This document shows, in pieces, positions 1-9,169 of a DNA stretch of 64,000 nucleotides. A program made the position numbers and the translations under genes. The notes under the pieces are model-generated. The model searched no databases. It saw only the letters and a program-made list of their open reading frames with translations, and was not told where the DNA came from. This stretch comes from Escherichia coli (GTDB lineage Bacteria; Pseudomonadota; Gammaproteobacteria; Enterobacterales; Enterobacteriaceae): assembly GCF_003790525.1 (NCBI RefSeq), contig NZ_CP033635.1. One strand, written 5' to 3'. The stretch's first letter is position 1. The number at the start of each line of letters is the position of its first letter.

Positions 1-965
1 TCAAATTCAACGCGGCGAACTTCTCCATCCCAATTTTTCAGCATGTCAATTGCCGCACGGGCCATCTTATCGACAGGTTGTCGAACAGCAGTTAAAGAAG
101 GGACGTTGTAAACCGATTCTTGTGTTGCATTAAAGCAGACCAGCGCAACATCTTCAGGAACGCGCAGCCCATGTTCTGCCAGGGCGCGTAAACAACCGAG
201 AGCCTGTTGTTCATTCGTCGCAAACAGGGCGCGTGGCAGTTGGTTCTCAAGCATGCGTTTTGTCGCTTCGTAACCGCCGGCGCGGGTATAGTTGGTCGAA
301 AAAATCCATGAGGGATTGACCACTAACGATGAGGCTTCCAGCGCCTGCCGCCAACCCCGGATACGATCCTGAGTATTCAGCATTTCACGTGGGCCGCAGA
401 TGATGCCGATGTCGCGGTATCCGTGATCAATCAGATGTTGTGTTACCAGCATTGCCGCCAGTTGTTCATCAACCTGGATAACGCTGACGTTAAGTCCAGG
501 ATCCACACGATCGAGCATGACGCAGGGGGTACCGCTCTCCTGAATCAAATTGATATAAGGATGGCGATCAACACTGGTGTAGATCAGCCCGTCAACCTGA
601 CGGTGCAGCATATTATTAATGAGTTCACGTTCACGGCAGCTACTGTCGCCTGCGTCTCCCAGCAGGAGTACTTTGCCATCAGCAAAGGCTTCGTGCTGCA
701 GAGCATGAGCTATAGAAGCGATAAACGGGTTCGAGATGTCCGGCACGACTAGCCCGTAAGTTTGCGTACTCCCTGAAGCCAGCGCACGCGCGATGCCATT
801 GGGTCGATAACCGGTTTTCTTAATTGCCTGTAGTACACGTTGCCGAGTCGCTTCGGCAACGGGGCGCGGACCATTATTAATAACGTAACTAACGACAGCG
901 ACGGATGTCCCTGCTTCTTTTGCCACGTCAGAGCGTGTTACGCGTTGTGAATGTGATTGAGTCAC
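1..965 (-). CDS. LacI-family transcriptional regulator (3' end runs off the window start)
   Basis: Minus-strand frame from a GTG at 965..963 translates to MTQSHSQRVTRSDVAKEAGTSVAVVSYVINNGPRPVAEATRQRV..., a typical LacI-type N-terminal HTH followed by a periplasmic-binding-like sugar domain. No stop occurs before position 1, which is why it is absent from the ORF track. Confidence 0.6.
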   Translation of the reverse strand, partial: MTQSHSQRVTRSDVAKEAGTSVAVVSYVINNGPRPVAEATRQRVLQAIKKTGYRPNGIARALASGSTQTYGLVVPDISNPFIASIAHALQHEAFADGKVLLLGDAGDSSCRERELINNMLHRQVDGLIYTSVDRHPYINLIQESGTPCVMLDRVDPGLNVSVIQVDEQLAAMLVTQHLIDHGYRDIGIICGPREMLNTQDRIRGWRQALEASSLVVNPSWIFSTNYTRAGGYEATKRMLENQLPRALFATNEQQALGCLRALAEHGLRVPEDVALVCFNATQESVYNVPSLTAVRQPVDKMARAAIDMLKNWDGEVRRVEF

Positions 966-1069
966 GAAGCACCTACCTAATTGCGTTCAGAGTGATTTTT
1001 TCCAGACAGCATAAGGCGTTATGACCCAAAAATCTTTGGTAAAGAACGCGCATCTCACGTTCTCTGGCC

Positions 1070-2470
1070 TTAAATTGCATCCTCGGGTAAGTTGAGATCC
1101 CGCCCGCGAGTCTCTGGTGCAAAGAACGTGGTCACCAGTCCAATCGCGGCCATAAAGGCGAAATAGATAGCGATTGGCCACCAGTGTCCGTAAAACGAGA
1201 GTAGCGCAGAGGCGATAAGTGGCGCTGTCCCGCCAGACATAATGGAACCGAGCTCTTTTGCAAATGCCATTTTGGTATAACGATTAGTGACACCGAAAAG
1301 CTCAACGCCCCACGCAGCCTGAACACCAAAAATACCCAGTGAAGCAAGCCCCATCCCGGTAATGATCGTCGGGATAACAATCCACGGCTCACGGGAATCC
1401 AGCAGCATAAATGCTGGAAAGGCATACAGGATCAGTAACAGGCAGAACCAACGATAGATGATACGTCTACCGAATCTATCGGACAGCCAACCCGCCAGAG
1501 GAATAATGGCAAATCCCAGAACGGATGCAATAAGTACGGCTGCCGTGGGTACGGACTCATCTACCATTAGTACTTTAGCGACATAACCAATGATAAACCC
1601 CTGAGCGAGATAAGAAGGACCATTCTCACCTATGCGTAATCCGACCATAGTCCAGAAGGCACGGGTCCGTTTCCAGAAGCTACGAGTGTCATGTTGTTGT
1701 TGTGCTTTTCCCTCACGAAGAACCTTTTCTCGTTCAGCCTGCAGAAGGGCTTTTTGACGTTCAAAGACTGGTGTTTCGCGTATATGACGACGAATTAATA
1801 GAGCGGCAGCAGCAATAAGAATGCTACAAAGAAAAGGAATACGCCATCCCCAGTTTAATAAGTCATCCTTGTCCATTTGCAGGACGATGAGCCAAACCAG
1901 TGAAGCCAGTAATGTTCCGCTGTTCGACCCCAGACCAATAACAGATGAAACTAGTCCACGTCGTTTAACGGGAGCATATTCACCAAGCATCACAGTACCG
2001 CCTGAAAGCTCCGCGCCAGCTCCCAGCCCCTGAGAAAATCGAAGGATAACCAGACATATCGGTGCCCAGACGCCTATCTGGGCGTAACTGGGGATTAATC
2101 CTATTAGCATGGTCGACATGCCCATCAATCCAATAGTGATAACCATGACAATTTTCCGACCATGTTTATCGCCTATCCAGCCGAACAGTAATGCACCAAT
2201 AGGGCGGGCAATAAACCCAACAGAATAGGCGGCAAAGCTGGAAAGTAATGCTATGACGGGTGTCACCTCCGGAAAAAAGACATCGCCAAAGATAATACCT
2301 GCGGCAAGTCCGTACAGAGCAAAATCGGCATACTCCATTGTAGTGCCTAGCCAGCAGGAAAAGGTAGCTCTCCAAAACTCGCGACGTCCCTCGGGGGTTT
2401 CCAGACGCTCCTGAGCTGCCTGTTGGTTATCCACTAGGGGAACAGAGGATGATGGATGATGTGTGTTCAT
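1070..2470 (-). CDS. MFS metabolite:H+ symporter (MHS-type, ProP/KgtP/ShiA-like)
   Basis: 466-aa ORF with about 12 predicted hydrophobic segments, the GxxxDKxGRK motif (WIGDKHGRKIVM) after TM2 and a long charged central loop. Adjacent and co-oriented with the LacI-family gene. Confidence 0.8.
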   Translation of the reverse strand: MNTHHPSSSVPLVDNQQAAQERLETPEGRREFWRATFSCWLGTTMEYADFALYGLAAGIIFGDVFFPEVTPVIALLSSFAAYSVGFIARPIGALLFGWIGDKHGRKIVMVITIGLMGMSTMLIGLIPSYAQIGVWAPICLVILRFSQGLGAGAELSGGTVMLGEYAPVKRRGLVSSVIGLGSNSGTLLASLVWLIVLQMDKDDLLNWGWRIPFLCSILIAAAALLIRRHIRETPVFERQKALLQAEREKVLREGKAQQQHDTRSFWKRTRAFWTMVGLRIGENGPSYLAQGFIIGYVAKVLMVDESVPTAAVLIASVLGFAIIPLAGWLSDRFGRRIIYRWFCLLLILYAFPAFMLLDSREPWIVIPTIITGMGLASLGIFGVQAAWGVELFGVTNRYTKMAFAKELGSIMSGGTAPLIASALLSFYGHWWPIAIYFAFMAAIGLVTTFFAPETRGRDLNLPEDAI

Positions 2471-2897
2471 AAGAACTCCTTGATATTATCTGTCAGATAT
2501 ACATCACAGGTAGATATCTTTCTTAAATCTACTCATGTAGATATTGTGTTTTATTACATATAAATAAATCTACTCGCGTAGACAAACCAGTCAATGGAAG
2601 TAAAATCGTGATAGAGATCACCCATAAGGTGTAAGCGCAAAGCTGGCGTTGTCTGTATCCCCGCTCCTGCCGGGCTAATTTACGCTTAAAACATCAGCAA
2701 TACACCAGCGTATTCAGTAGCGACAAGCATGAGTCACACTCAAACTCCCGACCATCACCATCCTTGAAAGGTTACAGATCCTGATATACCTGTGTTTATA
2801 ATTACCCTACTGTATTTTCATCATGAAACTGAATCGCTACACAGAGCTGTTTATCTGCAGAGTACAGGCTGGATATGGTTTATTATTACCGTAAGGT

Positions 2898-4311
2898 GTC
2901 AACGACGGATGAAAAGTGGCTCTTCCGCAACCTGGGTGGAAGAAAATGGATGAAACTTTCTGGTGAATAAAGATCTAAGCTGTTTTAAGTTATGGGCAAC
3001 GCAATGCACTCTCTTAAGACACTTCTACAGTTACCTTGCGGATGGAGATGCAGTCGACAAATTATTAGCTCTGACGGTATAACCCTCCATCTCCACGGAA
3101 AACGCAAAACAGCACAAGTCCTGAATGCTTTAAGCGTAGCGACTCTGTTCATAGTTATCGTCGGCGCCGGATACAGCATCTACCCTGCTTAGGGCAGACG
3201 CTATGGCTTGTATTTTCCGTCCGCCACTGGTACTGCCGTAACCCGGCTTGTTCACGTAAAATTTTTGCCGGGTCGCTTGCCCCCTTCGCCGGTTCACTCC
3301 CAGCATTCTTCACAGGTGTTACAAAATTTACAACATCAACTGGGATTAATAGCCGGAGGTGAGGCCGGGAAACAGGCAGCAACGGCAGTGGGGCTCCGTT
3401 GCAGTGCTGATACTCTTCTTCGCAGGGTTATTAATACCCCGGAGACGAAACAGTCAGGCGCGCCTCATGTCGGTATTGATGAGTGGGCGTGGCATCGGGG
3501 CTACCATTACGGTACGTTAATCGTCAATCTTTATACTCACCGTCCCCTCGTCCTGCTTCCCGGTTGCGATCAGAGTACGCTGGCGACCTGGTTCAGAAAA
3601 TATCCGGAAATACAGGTTGTCTCACGTGACCGTGGCGGAGTCTATGCGACAGCAGCACGTGAAGGTGCACCTCAGGCCAGACAGATAGCTGATCGATGGC
3701 ACCTGCTAAAAAATATTGGCGATGCGCCTGAACGAATGATGTACAGACAGATGCCTCTGATACGTCTTGTTGCCAGTGGGTTGTCACCAAAGAAATCACC
3801 TGAGCCAGAACTGTCTGTGCCTGTAGCATCGCTCCGTCGTCCGGAACGCCTTAAACAGCAAACCCGCCAAAAATGGCATCAGCGTTGGACAGAGGTTATG
3901 GCACTACATAACAAGGGATGTGGGTTCAGGGAAATATCCCGTATTACAGACTTATCACGTGTGACAGACAGTCTCTGGGTGTGTTCAGGAACATTCCCTG
4001 AAATGTCAACCCGGCCTCCAGAGCGAGGACTTATGGACCCATGGAAGGAGTGGTTAAAAGAGCAACGAGAAAGTGGTAACTTCGGCGCGTGGCTGCGAGG
4101 ATGGAAGCTGATGCTGCGGCTATATGTGAGGCAATCAGCAGTCGCTGGAATAATGGGGGGTGTCGAAAGTCATGTAAATCGGCTAAAAATGCTGAAAGGC
4201 CAGATGTATGGTCGAGCCGGATTTGAACTACTCAGGCAGAGGGTCATGAGTCCACTGGCATGAAAATCTCCATCCAGGTTGCGGAAGAGCCACTTTTCAT
4301 CCGTCGTTGAC
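2898..4311 (+). mobile_element. Insertion sequence (ISL3-family-like), about 1.41 kb, with perfect 38-bp terminal inverted repeats
   Basis: gtcaacgacggatgaaaagtggctcttccgcaacctgg at 2898..2935 is exactly reverse-complemented at 4274..4311. A transposase-like reading frame fills the interior. Confidence 0.6.
2992..4263 (+). pseudogene. IS transposase interrupted by an in-frame TAG stop at 3190..3192
   Basis: Track ORFs 2992..3192 and 3208..4263 are in the same frame, separated only by an amber codon. The C-terminal part has DDE-type transposase character (DEWAWHRGYHYGTL... DRWHLLKN). Combined length of about 423 codons fits ISL3-family transposases. Confidence 0.5.
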
Positions 4312-5098
4312 AGCTTGGGGGGTAGTGCATCGGTACCTCTAGGTCAAAGGAGGTATTCATATCCATATTAACGACTTGAATATGTTGACAGTACTGATTC
4401 AGATTAACGAAAAACGACCGAGCTTCTCTACTACGCACCTCACCTATCCAGAGGATTGATGAGTATCCGCATCGGCTACGACGGTGCGTAACGATGAGCT
4501 TTGAACAGGGCAAACTCTTTCATGACCCGGCCTTGGCAGTACATCAATCAGACCCTGTGACCTCTATTTGCAACTGACGTTTGTCGATAGTATTGATGAT
4601 ATGCTAGTGCAGGGTAAGAAATTACGAAATATGTTTAATCGGCAAGATTTTGAGTAACGCCTCAACATGCTCAATGAGTCATGTGGTCTGATGAGCATAA
4701 GGCTTTAGCCAGCTGATATAATCCCGAACTATGCCGTAGTTAGGGCAAAGAATGCGGTAGACGGGTAGGCGTAACTGAACTGGAAATACCAGTATTGTTC
4801 ATTACGATAAGGTGCGAAGTAAAGCATCGTGAACGGCTTTAGCCTGTTTGCCACAAGAATAATGACCGTTTTCAATCGGTTTTAGGTGGATGATGAGGGG
4901 GATTTTACTCAGTAGGGACGACGTCAAAGCCTATCCAGAGATAAATGGAAAAGATAGTATTCGAAATTGAGAACGGTTGGGGTTGGTTATCGTTCTGTTT
5001 TAGCAACTAAACAATAACTCCCCAACCGTTATCATTTCCAGCACACGATAATCTGCAATGAACATTAAAAATTCACGGCGGCGGTCGCTTTCCTTAAT

Positions 5099-6061
5099 TT
5101 ACGTCTCCTCTTGGGAGTGGATAATATGGGTGCCTGTTTCGCCACGCAGTGCCGCGGACAGGCATTCAGGCGTGGTGATAATCACTCTTTTACCTCCACG
5201 TTCCAGGAACTCCAGACTGGCAAGAATCTTCGGTAACATACTCCCAGGCGGGAAGTGACCCTCCTGCATGTAACGGGCCATCGTTAGGACATCCACTGTA
5301 TCCAGTGCATGCTGGTTGGGTTTCCCAAAATGAATACTCACTTTTTCCACGCCGGTGGTGATCACCAGAATGTCGGCGTGAATTTCGCGAGCCAGTAGCG
5401 CGCTAGAGAGATCTTTGTCGATAACCGCGTCCACGCTTTGGTAATCCCCTGCGTCAGTACGCACCACCGGAATGCCACCGCCGCCCGCGCCAATCACCAC
5501 AAAGCCTTGCTGGATCAGAGTCTTAATGGCAGGTGCTTCGACAATACGTTTCGGTTCCGGCGAGGCGACCACGCGGCGATAGCCCCGTCCGGCATCTTCA
5601 ACAAAACGCCAGTCAGGGTTTGCCTTTTGTAGTTCATCACGCTGGTTTTCACTAAAGAATGCACCGATGGGCTTGGTGGGATGGACAAACCCCGGATCGT
5701 TTTTATCCACTTCCACCTGAGTCACCACGGTGACGGCTTTTTTCTCGCCGTGAGGCGCCAGCCGGTTGTTCAGCGCCTGCTGGATCAGATAGCCAATGCC
5801 GCCTTGCGTATCCGCCACACAGTTCGCCAGCGGCGTTAAGGGTAGCCCTTCGCGCTCGTGGGCTATCTCCGCGCGGCGTAAATCCAGACCGACCTGCGGC
5901 CCGTTGCCGTGGGTCAGCACAATGTCGTAATCGGAAGCCAGCATTTCCAGAACCGTATCGGCGACGGCCTTCACCGCCTCCGCCTGATGCTCAATCGACT
6001 GGCTGGCGTTATCTTTGATAATGCTGTTGCCACCAATGGCAACGACCACAAGTTCTTTCAT
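5099..6061 (-). CDS. Carbamate kinase (ArcC/YahI-like)
   Basis: 320 aa beginning MKELVVVAIGGNSI, with DIVLTHGNGPQVG and a GGGGIPV motif characteristic of the carbamate kinase / amino acid kinase fold. Last gene of the minus-strand operon. Confidence 0.8.
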   Translation of the reverse strand: MKELVVVAIGGNSIIKDNASQSIEHQAEAVKAVADTVLEMLASDYDIVLTHGNGPQVGLDLRRAEIAHEREGLPLTPLANCVADTQGGIGYLIQQALNNRLAPHGEKKAVTVVTQVEVDKNDPGFVHPTKPIGAFFSENQRDELQKANPDWRFVEDAGRGYRRVVASPEPKRIVEAPAIKTLIQQGFVVIGAGGGGIPVVRTDAGDYQSVDAVIDKDLSSALLAREIHADILVITTGVEKVSIHFGKPNQHALDTVDVLTMARYMQEGHFPPGSMLPKILASLEFLERGGKRVIITTPECLSAALRGETGTHIIHSQEET

Positions 6062-6087
6062 AGAATTATCTTCCGTTTGCAGGCTAT

Positions 6088-7638
6088 TCAGGTCGTTTTA
6101 GTCTCTTCCTGCTCAGACGCAGCCACTGTTTCACGGCTATCAATAACATGCTTGAGGGCAAACATAGCAAGCATCATCAGGTAGGCCACAACAAACACAA
6201 TCGAGCTGCCTTCCGCAAAGCCAACCGCTGGGGAGTGAATCACGCCAAACAGCGATAACAGTGCTCCAAAGGATGCAGCTATCGCCCCGCGCAGCGGCTT
6301 ATTCATAATGGCAAAGATCGCAATGCATCCCCACAGCATGCTGGCCAGCGGTGCACCGCTTCCCAGATGCATCAGTCCATCGTAATAGACGCCTTTGCTG
6401 TGCAACAGGTCGCTACCAAGTTTCTCAGCGGATGTTCCGGCTGCGCCCATCACGCTGTTAACGATGGTCAATGCCCAGTTGGCGACCCATGGGAACAGAC
6501 AGATGAAAATAACGGGAACCTCGACTTTAGGAGTTTCTCGCACCACCTGATTGGCGGTTACCACACCGATAAAAACCAGAATTGGCACTATAGCAGTCAT
6601 GGGAATAATGGCGAGCATAAACGCGCCCAACCCAAACAATGGCACCAGGAACATAGTGATGCCTGATGCGAGGGTATAGCAGATACTAGCGCCCATAGCT
6701 TTCCAGCCTGCATGCCCAACATATACGGTTACCGGGAACGGATTACCCAGCATGCAACCGAGCATGGAGGCAAAGCCGTTCGCCATCATGACCTTACGGG
6801 TGTTGTATTCATCACCAGCCGCGTGCGCACTTTCAATGTTCTCGAGGTCAAAAATGTAGTTAGCCAGGCCCAAAGGAACTGCAGAAGCCAGATATGGCAG
6901 AGCGTGCGGCAAACCTTGCAGGAAGCTCCTTACATGAATTTCCGGCGGGTTGAAGCCGAAGGAAGACATCGACGCTTTAATGTCTTCCGGGCTTTGTAAA
7001 CCGGATATCCACGCTAGGGACGTACCAGCAATCAGCAACAGCAAACCGGTAGGAATATGGGGAAAAATCGGCTTCTTACCGAACCAGTTAATGAAGATCA
7101 ATAACAGGACGATGAAAGAAACTGTCGGCGCTTCGAACGCTTGCAGCATCGGGTTCATTGCCAGCAGTAATAACCCCAGTCCGGACAGACAAGAAAGCAG
7201 CACTGTACGCGGGATCATCTTGCGGATAGTCTCACCCAGGAAGGAGCCACCGACCAGGATCAACGCTTCGACAAAGCACCACACCAATCCTATCTGAATA
7301 GCAAAGTTGGCATCTTTGGTTTGCTGATAAACCGGCATCAGCACCAGGAATGTCACGGTAAAGATTGAGGGTGCGCTCGGTCCAGACGGCAGCGCCGTTA
7401 CATCGCTACGACCGGTTTTCTTCACCATCTGTAGACCAAACCAGGAGTAGCAGACACTGGCCGCCAGCACTGCAAGACCAAAGGCAGGCGCAATGCGTCC
7501 ATAGACAATTTCAGTAGGGATTCCGACGACAAAAATTAGCAGACCCATCATTGTCAGCAGGTTAGTCAGATTGTTGGTCATCAGTCCAAAGTAAGCCGCC
7601 CAGTCACCACGTTTCCATTCTAGTTTTATGCTGTTCAT
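6088..7638 (-). CDS. Polytopic membrane permease (possibly NCS2/AzgA-like nucleobase-type transporter)
   Basis: 516 aa, highly hydrophobic with many predicted TM segments, embedded between the DUF1116 and carbamate kinase genes. Family assignment is tentative. Confidence 0.45.
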   Translation of the reverse strand: MNSIKLEWKRGDWAAYFGLMTNNLTNLLTMMGLLIFVVGIPTEIVYGRIAPAFGLAVLAASVCYSWFGLQMVKKTGRSDVTALPSGPSAPSIFTVTFLVLMPVYQQTKDANFAIQIGLVWCFVEALILVGGSFLGETIRKMIPRTVLLSCLSGLGLLLLAMNPMLQAFEAPTVSFIVLLLIFINWFGKKPIFPHIPTGLLLLIAGTSLAWISGLQSPEDIKASMSSFGFNPPEIHVRSFLQGLPHALPYLASAVPLGLANYIFDLENIESAHAAGDEYNTRKVMMANGFASMLGCMLGNPFPVTVYVGHAGWKAMGASICYTLASGITMFLVPLFGLGAFMLAIIPMTAIVPILVFIGVVTANQVVRETPKVEVPVIFICLFPWVANWALTIVNSVMGAAGTSAEKLGSDLLHSKGVYYDGLMHLGSGAPLASMLWGCIAIFAIMNKPLRGAIAASFGALLSLFGVIHSPAVGFAEGSSIVFVVAYLMMLAMFALKHVIDSRETVAASEQEETKTT

Positions 7639-7750
7639 GGAATCTCCTTAACAGGTTAAGCATCGTTTGCGATCATGGAGATCGCCCAGCCCTGAAGGTA
7701 AACAACGTTTTCCGCTACTGTGGGGCTAACTGCGTTAGCCCCGGTTATTG

Positions 7751-9169
7751 TTATTGGCAGTAGTGGTCACGCCAGTTGAGGATCGCCTTTTCAAAACAAG
7801 TGAACGGCGGGTGAACAATTCCTGCGCCGATCATGCCGATCCCTGCGTCTTTGTGCGCAATGGCTGTGTTAATTACCGGCAGAATGCCTGTACTGCCTAC
7901 ACGTGTAATATCGATAGCGGTCGGTACGCCCATAAAACCAAGCAGGGGAATGGTGACGTTGGGGTTTTCTCCGAGAGTGATTTCTCTCATTTTACGTGAG
8001 AAATCAATAGCTTCCTCAACTGTTCCGCCCACCAGTGACACAATAGCTGGTGCCGTCGCCATAGCGAAACCGCCAACGCCGTAGGTTTCGGTAATTGCAC
8101 TATCACCGATATCACGTCCGGAATCCTCTAGCTTATAGCCCGCAAACATCGGCCCAATCACCTGCTGCGCCGGACCGGTAAACCACTGGCCCGGCAAACC
8201 GCTAATACGAAGACCGAACTCAACACCATTGCGTGCCATCGTTGTCACCACGGTGCTGTATTCAATGCCGTGCGCAGCGTCCATTGCGGCTTTACACATT
8301 GCCATCCATGTTGGTCCTGAGAAGTAATCACTACTGAGGACAAACTCGAACACCTCACGCTGCTGCTCAACAGGGTAGCCAGTCTGAATAATCCACGGCG
8401 TCAGCGTCTGAATCAGCAGCGCCGTCCCGGCGTTGTTGCGGTTATGGCACTCATCGCCCATATGCAGCGCCTGCGCTAACATCAAGTGCAGATCGATTTC
8501 GCCCGCCAGCTTCATAGCATCGCGCAACATAGGTCCCAGTACATCTCGCATCCAGTTAAGACGCTCTATAACGCTCTGGTCGTTAGCGCCCATACGCAGG
8601 ATCTTTGCCATCTGCTCGCTCATATTGGTATATGCGCGGTTTCCATAGGTTTTGTTCTCGACGATGTGCATAAACATCGATGCAGACGTGACACCCGCCA
8701 TTGAGCCGACACAGTCATGTTCGTGGCACGGAGAGAAGATGATTTCACCTGAAGCAGCTAGTTCGGCGGCATCATCCAGATCTTTCGCCAGTCCTTCAAA
8801 TACCAGAGCCCCGGTTACTGCGCCCTTCATTGCGCCGCACATTTTTTCCCAGTGGATTGGCGGCCCGGCGTGAAGGATAGTGTTACGGGTCATACCCGGC
8901 ACGACGTTGATCGCCTGATCATAGCCAATTAGCACAGGATGCGACTGGATAATGCGTTCCAGCGCCAGCTGATTAGCAGCTGCAATTTTGTCTGCCAGTG
9001 GTGAAGCGGCAATGTCGTCCAGTGCCGTTACCACTTGTATGTTTCCTTGGCCTGGCGGTGTCCAGTCAAGTTGGGTTACCGGTACATTCTGCTTTTTCAT
9101 GTCATCGCTGAACATTTCGATACCGACATTAATAACGTTCAGCGGCTGATTAAACAGTGTCTGGCTCAT
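7751..9169 (-). CDS. DUF1116-family protein (YahG/YlbE/AllG-like, putative carbamoyltransferase subunit)
   Basis: 472 aa. Its start codon overlaps the upstream FdrA-like stop by one base (TGATG), indicating translational coupling. Same size and operon position as K-12 YahG. Confidence 0.7.
   Translation of the reverse strand: MSQTLFNQPLNVINVGIEMFSDDMKKQNVPVTQLDWTPPGQGNIQVVTALDDIAASPLADKIAAANQLALERIIQSHPVLIGYDQAINVVPGMTRNTILHAGPPIHWEKMCGAMKGAVTGALVFEGLAKDLDDAAELAASGEIIFSPCHEHDCVGSMAGVTSASMFMHIVENKTYGNRAYTNMSEQMAKILRMGANDQSVIERLNWMRDVLGPMLRDAMKLAGEIDLHLMLAQALHMGDECHNRNNAGTALLIQTLTPWIIQTGYPVEQQREVFEFVLSSDYFSGPTWMAMCKAAMDAAHGIEYSTVVTTMARNGVEFGLRISGLPGQWFTGPAQQVIGPMFAGYKLEDSGRDIGDSAITETYGVGGFAMATAPAIVSLVGGTVEEAIDFSRKMREITLGENPNVTIPLLGFMGVPTAIDITRVGSTGILPVINTAIAHKDAGIGMIGAGIVHPPFTCFEKAILNWRDHYCQ

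Follow-up and report, generated by a model that had tools for sequence, protein, structure and literature searches.

The window analysed here is a stretch of 64,000 nucleotides (nt) of Escherichia coli DNA (assembly GCF_003790525.1, contig NZ_CP033635.1), whose first 2470 positions hold two genes on the minus strand, encoding a transporter of the major facilitator superfamily (MFS) and a regulator of the LacI family. An earlier reading made from the letters alone, referred to below as the sequence-only reading, had described positions 1-2470 as a LacI-family regulator with an MFS transporter of the metabolite/H+ symporter (MHS) type. Both assignments are confirmed and both genes are intact, with the qualification that the transporter, which lies under the TIGR00883 cut-off, is MHS-like. 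The same reading saw no catabolic enzyme next to the pair in the window, and indeed none is found in 1..2900. It also suspected a larger sugar-acid or aromatic-acid utilisation locus continuing upstream of the window. A continuation past coordinate 1 does exist, comprising genes for a nucleoside hydrolase and an MgtC/SapB-family protein, but it is not of the sugar-acid or aromatic-acid class; the cognate enzyme is present, but transcriptionally downstream, the transporter gene being gene 1 and the regulator gene gene 2. The pair is probably the promoter-proximal half of a four-gene minus-strand accessory operon for the uptake and cleavage of a riboside, CRP-dependent, LacI-repressed and autoregulated. 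Its genes, with the spacer between the first two, are as follows.

1070..2470, minus strand: MHS-like MFS transporter gene, 466 amino acids, ATG at 2470; gene 1 of the operon.
966..1069, minus strand: spacer of 104 nt between the transporter and regulator genes, with a sequence conserved among Enterobacteriaceae copies.
1..965, minus strand: LacI/GalR-family repressor gene, codons 1-321 of 343 inside the window, GTG start at 965 (RefSeq WP_000194409.1; L001 24937..25968).
L001 23943-24962, just left of the window, same strand as the regulator: nucleoside hydrolase gene, 339 amino acids (RefSeq annotation, WP_000876797.1).
L001 23166-23879, same strand: MgtC/SapB-family membrane protein gene, 237 amino acids, 63 nt past the hydrolase gene; fourth gene.

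The left flank was read from the RefSeq annotation of the chromosome of E. coli TUM9803 (NZ_CP135671.1), on which the window starts at base 80003 with 100% identity (megablast). The final 22 codons and the stop of the regulator gene fall within this flank. The annotated start of the hydrolase overlaps the 3′ end of the regulator gene by 26 nt; distant orthologues begin at the residue equivalent to hydrolase M13, which corresponds to a start 11 nt past the regulator stop codon. The true start may be M13, since the 12 annotated residues before it show poor conservation and low model confidence. With either start, the regulator and hydrolase genes are tightly packed. Beyond the MgtC/SapB gene only fragments of insertion sequences (IS) occur, and a terminator scan gave no convincing terminator after this gene. 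The fourth protein matches MgtC (PF02308, 1.2e-35) and has a weak C-terminal match to ACT_4.

The arrangement is conserved well beyond E. coli. A scan for orthologues, with one genome per species, recovered orthologous transporters from Citrobacter, Raoultella, Enterobacter, Mixta, Edwardsiella, Providencia, Xenorhabdus, Succinivibrionaceae, Pseudomonas gingeri, a Neisseriaceae genome and Snodgrassella. Among loci long enough to judge, and save the variants noted here, the order MFS-LacI-hydrolase is kept in about 20 loci from at least 8 genera at 45–97% protein identity, the most distant loci with the full order showing identities of 74% (transporter), 48% (regulator) and 46% (hydrolase). In the full-length Neisseriaceae locus the hydrolase gene directly follows the transporter gene, with no LacI gene; in P. 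gingeri a gene for an OprD-family porin (PF03573, 5.9e-113; L021 7610-8941), nearest to OprE and other OccK channels, lies between the transporter and regulator genes; and the MgtC/SapB gene is confined to the Enterobacteriaceae and Mixta versions. Because of these variants, the conserved core is taken to be transporter plus hydrolase, usually accompanied by the repressor. No ribokinase, deaminase or phosphorylase is conserved beside this core in the distant loci examined. The core is flanked by different genes in different groups: Pseudomonas has an OprD-type porin with a LysR regulator, Succinivibrionaceae a TRAP transporter with a GntR regulator, and Providencia an amidohydrolase with a carbamate kinase. 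The transporter also has beta-proteobacterial versions, in a Neisseriaceae metagenome-assembled genome and in Snodgrassella alvi (L022, L023, L024).

The hydrolase matches IU_nuc_hydro (PF01156) at 2.6e-69 over profile positions 1-295 of 297, with an identity of about 27–30% to any solved nucleoside hydrolase. Its AlphaFold2 model (pLDDT 87.8) superimposes with a TM-score of about 0.8 on structures of YeiK/RihB, RihA, IU-NH and plant NRH. Eleven residues (D18, D20, D31, D32, N56, T151, N152, D185, N187, H260 and D261) are invariant among 10 orthologues and align with the Asp and Asn positions that bind metal and ribose, and with the His-Asp pair, of solved enzymes including plant NRH. A conserved insertion of 7 residues, NGIPGAN, interrupts the DxDxxxDD fingerprint, so that the aspartates are kept with a spacing that is not canonical; it is absent from the aligned solved homologues plant NRH1 and NRH3. 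Judged by its conserved residues and modelled fold, the protein is very probably an active N-ribosidase, with a base specificity not readable from its sequence. Membership of the named groups RihA, RihB, RihC and UriH was considered and rejected, the NCBIfam scores falling far under the curated cut-offs (RihA 162 vs 433 bits, RihB 127 vs 459, RihC 154 vs 382, UriH 137 vs 450).

The transporter matches the Pfam models MFS_1 (4.7e-34) and Sugar_tr (6.9e-33). It carries a duplicated MFS motif A (GWIGDKHGRK and GWLSDRFGRR), with several hydrophobic segments in each half. Its top NCBIfam model is TIGR00883, ‘metabolite/H+ symporter’, aligned over all 400 profile positions at 2.5e-115 and 385.7 bits. 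As this score lies under the curated cut-off of 443.45 bits, the protein is termed MHS-like and not a certified member of the family. It also falls far under the equivalog cut-offs of the ShiA (shikimate transporter) and ProP models. In the sources, 120 close homologues bear generic names without exception: ‘MFS transporter’, ‘MHS family’ or, in a single case, ‘Proline/betaine transporter’.

The regulator has the domain architecture of its family, with a LacI helix-turn-helix domain (PF00356, 1.3e-13, residues 12-56) followed by matches to Peripla_BP_3 (6.2e-33), Peripla_BP_1 (5e-29) and also Peripla_BP_4. The closest solved relatives, in full-length alignment, are CcpA (3.5e-55) and then PurR and RbsR, and the hinge segment ARALAS is retained, aligned to ARGLAS of CcpA. 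The protein lies under every NCBIfam equivalog cut-off, with the UriR model, for instance, giving 155 bits against 550. Assignments to RbsR, PurR, CytR and UriR were rejected on these scores, which are far under the curated cut-offs.

Control of the operon is suggested by a set of elements upstream of the transporter gene, listed here from the start codon outwards.

2476..2481, minus strand: Shine-Dalgarno sequence AAGGAG, 5 nt before the transporter ATG (direct reading).
2527..2542, unstranded: proximal operator ATCTACATGAGTAGAT (operon sense), with perfect half-sites and the centre TG instead of CG.
2568..2583, unstranded: distal operator GTCTACGCGAGTAGAT (operon sense), its centre 41 bp from that of the proximal operator.
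2567..2594, minus strand: candidate sigma-70 promoter, TTGACT and TAGATT separated by 16 nt (consensus scan 9/12), with the -10 inside the distal operator.
2604..2625, unstranded: CRP-like site ATGGGTGATCTCTATCACGATT (8/10 core, 15/22 consensus), centred about 39 nt further upstream than the distal operator.

The sequence-only reading had proposed that LacI-type palindromic operators be sought in both intergenic regions. The expectation was borne out for 2471..2897, which contains two palindromes, but not for 966..1069, where a pattern search allowing up to 2 mismatches found no operator-like palindrome; on the minus strand of this spacer, a promoter and terminator scan found no consensus promoter or terminator either. 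From 34 collected sites (27 distinct, drawn from 20 orthologous regions) the consensus wTCTACnCGnGTAGAw is derived, an operator motif newly defined here. The half-sites TCTAC and GTAGA show little or no variation, and the CG centre is present in 33 of the 34 sites. The equivalent of the proximal operator in other genera is ATCTACGCGAGTAGAA. The TG centre of the E. coli proximal operator is common to all 3 E. coli alleles examined, all other collected sites having CG; this change could cause partial derepression and could have become fixed ahead of the spread of the module within E. coli. Enterobacteriaceae have 2 copies upstream of the transporter gene, 42 bp apart, Providencia, Xenorhabdus and Pseudomonas 1 each, and Succinivibrionaceae 1-2.

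The motif accompanies the regulator. An operator stands upstream of the transporter in every locus with the regulator, and none was found in the one full-length locus without it (Neisseriaceae). In P. gingeri, where the inserted gene splits regulator and hydrolase from the first promoter, an additional operator lies 70 nt upstream of the regulator gene (L021 9129-9142). The exact pattern TCTACNCGNGTAGA, with 12 fixed bases, has 35 matches in the fetched loci, all of them upstream of the transporter or, additionally in P. gingeri, of the regulator gene, set against a chance expectation estimated at fewer than 0.1 matches in the approximately 0.35 Mb searched. LacI-family operators, such as those of PurR, CcpA and LacI, have as their standard form a 16-bp dyad centred on CG; the hinge segment, which contacts this dyad, is retained in the regulator. 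Going by this co-occurrence and format, the best reading is that the LacI-family regulator acts via the wTCTACnCGnGTAGAw dyads, which are predicted operators.

As for the promoter, sigma-70 consensus hits in the region are no more numerous than in shuffled sequence. An alternative -10, reading TATAAT in Citrobacter and Raoultella and CACAAT here, abuts the proximal operator. Repression rather than activation is indicated, because with either -10 an operator overlaps or directly follows the promoter. Only 2 sites in the 64-kb window reach the CRP-consensus quality of 2604..2625, the second (12354-12375) lying between an ankyrin-repeat gene and a divergent LysR-family gene. A comparable CRP-like site about 39–40 nt upstream of the operator centre is seen in Citrobacter, Raoultella, Providencia (9/10 core) and Xenorhabdus, while Pseudomonas has none comparable (best 6/10 core). 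The Shine-Dalgarno sequence AAGGAG is kept in Enterobacteriaceae copies and reads AAGGAT in Mixta. Between it and the proximal operator, the transporter 5′ leader includes an imperfect inverted repeat, CCTGTGATGTATATCTGACAG (gene sense, 2490-2510), which also scores 8/10 for the CRP core and has conserved counterparts in Citrobacter and Raoultella. No Rfam match was obtained for 1..4600 (E up to 1).

Taken as one system, the parts suggest the following course of events. The MHS-like transporter would take up a riboside by proton symport, and the cytoplasmic hydrolase would split it into ribose and a free base, both of which would feed host pathways. Without inducer, a dimer of the LacI-family protein would sit on the two 16-bp palindromes 41 bp apart, over or just past the promoter, and block transcription, and the CRP-like upstream site would make expression dependent on the absence of preferred sugars. 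The repressor would be autoregulated, since its gene sits inside the operon. No paper on the module was found in the literature searched.

Several points weigh against this riboside operon model. The conserved core includes neither a ribokinase nor a base-catabolic gene. The specificity of the hydrolase is not transferable from known enzymes, because of its distance below the RihA, RihB, RihC and UriH cut-offs and its 7-residue insertion. Characterised MHS-family transporters (TC 2.A.1.6) are known as carriers of organic acids or zwitterions and are not known to move neutral nucleosides, and a canonical nucleoside is for this reason not an obvious fit. On the regulatory side, the proximal E. 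coli operator may bind weakly because of its TG centre, the promoter is not placed with confidence (two candidate -10 hexamers, each touching an operator), and the distance from the CRP-like site to the scored candidate -10 corresponds to neither a class I nor a class II position (-61.5/-41.5).

The acid and zwitterion range of the MHS family hints, as a weak hypothesis, at an acidic substrate, i.e. a riboside with a carboxylate. This sub-case of the riboside operon keeps the architecture and replaces the canonical nucleoside by a carboxylated N-riboside (nicotinate riboside, orotidine and modified nucleosides being examples); it is a tentative possibility. It agrees with the hydrolase forming a subfamily of its own, marked by the conserved insertion that adjoins its metal-binding Asp residues, and with the gene for an OccK-type OprD-family porin inside the P. 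gingeri version; PMC3260308 states that Occ channels need a carboxyl group and that OccK channels prefer cyclic carboxylates. The porin, however, occurs in one genus only, the substrate range of MFS proteins is plastic, and the conserved core has no gene for the catabolism of a carboxylated base. The fuller claim, that a carboxylated N-riboside is a new substrate class for MHS-type carriers, cleaved by a dedicated hydrolase subfamily and controlled by a LacI-family repressor whose operator had not been described before, is doubtful. A sugar-acid or aromatic-acid utilisation locus with its enzymes beyond the window, as the sequence-only reading suggested, would also fit the nearest named transporter models (the MHS family, ShiA and ProP), but what adjoins the pair is a nucleoside hydrolase gene, an MgtC/SapB gene and then IS remnants, and no gene for a dehydratase, dehydrogenase, kinase, aldolase or ring-cleavage enzyme is linked in about 20 orthologous loci. 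We regard it as extremely unlikely.

The remaining alternatives would separate parts that the riboside operon joins. Transporter and hydrolase might not form one pathway, with the MFS protein moving an unrelated metabolite and the hydrolase salvaging endogenous nucleosides, much as the RihA, RihB and RihC that E. coli already possesses act on internal nucleoside pools. This is unlikely, given that the two genes remain neighbours in gamma- and beta-proteobacterial loci alike, including those that have lost the regulator or MgtC, that one operator-controlled promoter is common to both, and that the CRP-like site fits a catabolic function. The palindromes, in turn, could be chance repeats or be bound by another factor while the LacI-family protein regulates something else, and their half-site TCTAC does differ from PurR, RbsR, CytR and cre sites. 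Such a reading is very unlikely: the palindrome tracks the regulator, to the point of standing before the regulator gene where this forms its own transcription unit in P. gingeri, the only full-length locus lacking the regulator lacks the palindrome too, and its 16-bp dyad with central CG has the LacI-family format.

The module is found in 255 of 5426 complete E. coli genomes, at 200 chromosomal and 62 plasmid places. The four genes occur together in unrelated surroundings, namely IncF-type conjugative E. coli plasmids, one Salmonella plasmid, a tRNA-Leu island, in which the copy is flanked by IS1 copies, and the island of this window, which has 98%-identical relatives. At least 80% of the module is covered in 36 of 37 matching plasmid records. 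DNA identity is 96% between E. coli alleles and 88–89% to the Citrobacter amalonaticus group, the nearest sampled relatives; other E. coli and Citrobacter copies, like this one, have both the transporter gene and the regulator gene intact. In the same island, at a distance of about 20 kb to the left of the window, a second LacI-family regulator adjoins an ascorbate-type phosphotransferase system (IIA, IIB, IIC) and a split transketolase (L001 3018-8273), which is another accessory sugar module. On the right the module is bounded by one element outside the operon.

2893..4316, plus strand: decayed ISL3-family insertion sequence with 48-nt terminal inverted repeats.

The IS that the sequence-only reading placed beside the pair is a real ISL3-family element. 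Its terminal inverted repeats (2893..2940 and 4269..4316) are 96% complementary and its transposase is frameshifted according to the RefSeq annotation; when related ISL3 copies from other genomes are aligned with it, the stretch on their side exceeds that of the query by about 350 bp. The right edge of the mobile module lies about 240 bp upstream of the transporter start and not at the IS, because the commoner E. coli alleles and the plasmids cease to be homologous at about 2710-2714 and only island variants with 98–100% identity reach the IS. Across the IS, on the minus strand at 5099-11524, lie genes for carbamate kinase, an annotated ‘xanthine permease’, YlbE, FdrA and an AllH-family protein. 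In Providencia rettgeri and P. vermicola the module adjoins homologues of that carbamate kinase (74%) and ‘xanthine permease’ (82%) in a different orientation (L012 11061-13383; L013). As the same homologues adjoin the module in two Providencia species, its proximity to the carbamate kinase cluster may have a functional basis and not be an accident. A truncated translation (426 amino acids) of the Providencia ‘xanthine permease’ homologue gave no Pfam match.

Should the riboside operon model be correct, about 5% of E. coli with complete sequences would possess a self-contained and horizontally mobile riboside-scavenging route with a clean, testable regulatory switch, which would also be present in many Citrobacter, Raoultella, Erwinia, Pantoea, Providencia and Xenorhabdus. 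It would, in addition, provide a first function for a widespread, unnamed subgroup of MHS-like transporters and for a distinct subfamily of nucleoside hydrolases. The operator motif could serve to annotate the regulon elsewhere. On this model the module is an ordinary, uncharacterised, repressor-controlled catabolic operon that changes no general principle. It would gain in interest if the substrate proved to be an unusual riboside; being mobile between Enterobacterales chromosomes and IncF-type plasmids, it could then let carriers in the gut, in urine, in insects or on plants use a niche nutrient.

The transporter resembles the MHS family (ShiA, ProP, KgtP and the citrate carriers) in its full-length alignment to TIGR00883, and GenBank names close homologues ‘MHS family MFS transporter’, but it scores below the curated family cut-off and far below those of the ShiA and ProP equivalogs. 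A further difference is its genomic partner, an N-ribosidase; to our knowledge, such a partner has not been described for any MHS member. The hydrolase shares with E. coli RihA, RihB (YeiK) and RihC the fold (TM-score about 0.8), the Pfam family and the aligned Asp/Asn and His-Asp residues, yet its identity to them is about 27% and it has the insertion NGIPGAN inside the DxDxxxDD motif. Its gene has a transporter gene and a repressor gene of its own as linked partners, which the K-12 rih genes are not known to have. Likewise, the regulator has the domain architecture, hinge segment and (predicted) 16-bp palindromic operator with central CG of PurR, RbsR, CytR and CcpA, but is well below each equivalog cut-off and has the distinct half-site TCTAC.

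The closest parallel for the module as a whole is the uridine operon uriR-rbsK1-uriT-uriH of Corynebacterium glutamicum, in which, according to PMC3350403 (citing Brinkrolf 2008), the MFS protein UriT and the hydrolase UriH are under the LacI-type repressor UriR. As described there, the two systems have in common a LacI/GalR-type repressor encoded in its own operon, an MFS importer and an IU-type hydrolase yielding ribose and a base. The likeness is one of analogy only, as the proteins are not orthologous (UriR 155 vs 550 bits; UriH 137 vs 450). The Corynebacterium operon, in the same account, has a ribokinase gene and another gene order, the locus here being without a ribokinase gene, and UriR binds cre-like sequences, as opposed to the motif wTCTACnCGnGTAGAw. 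The module described here is set apart, furthermore, by its MHS-like transporter and, in the enterobacterial versions, by its MgtC/SapB fourth gene.

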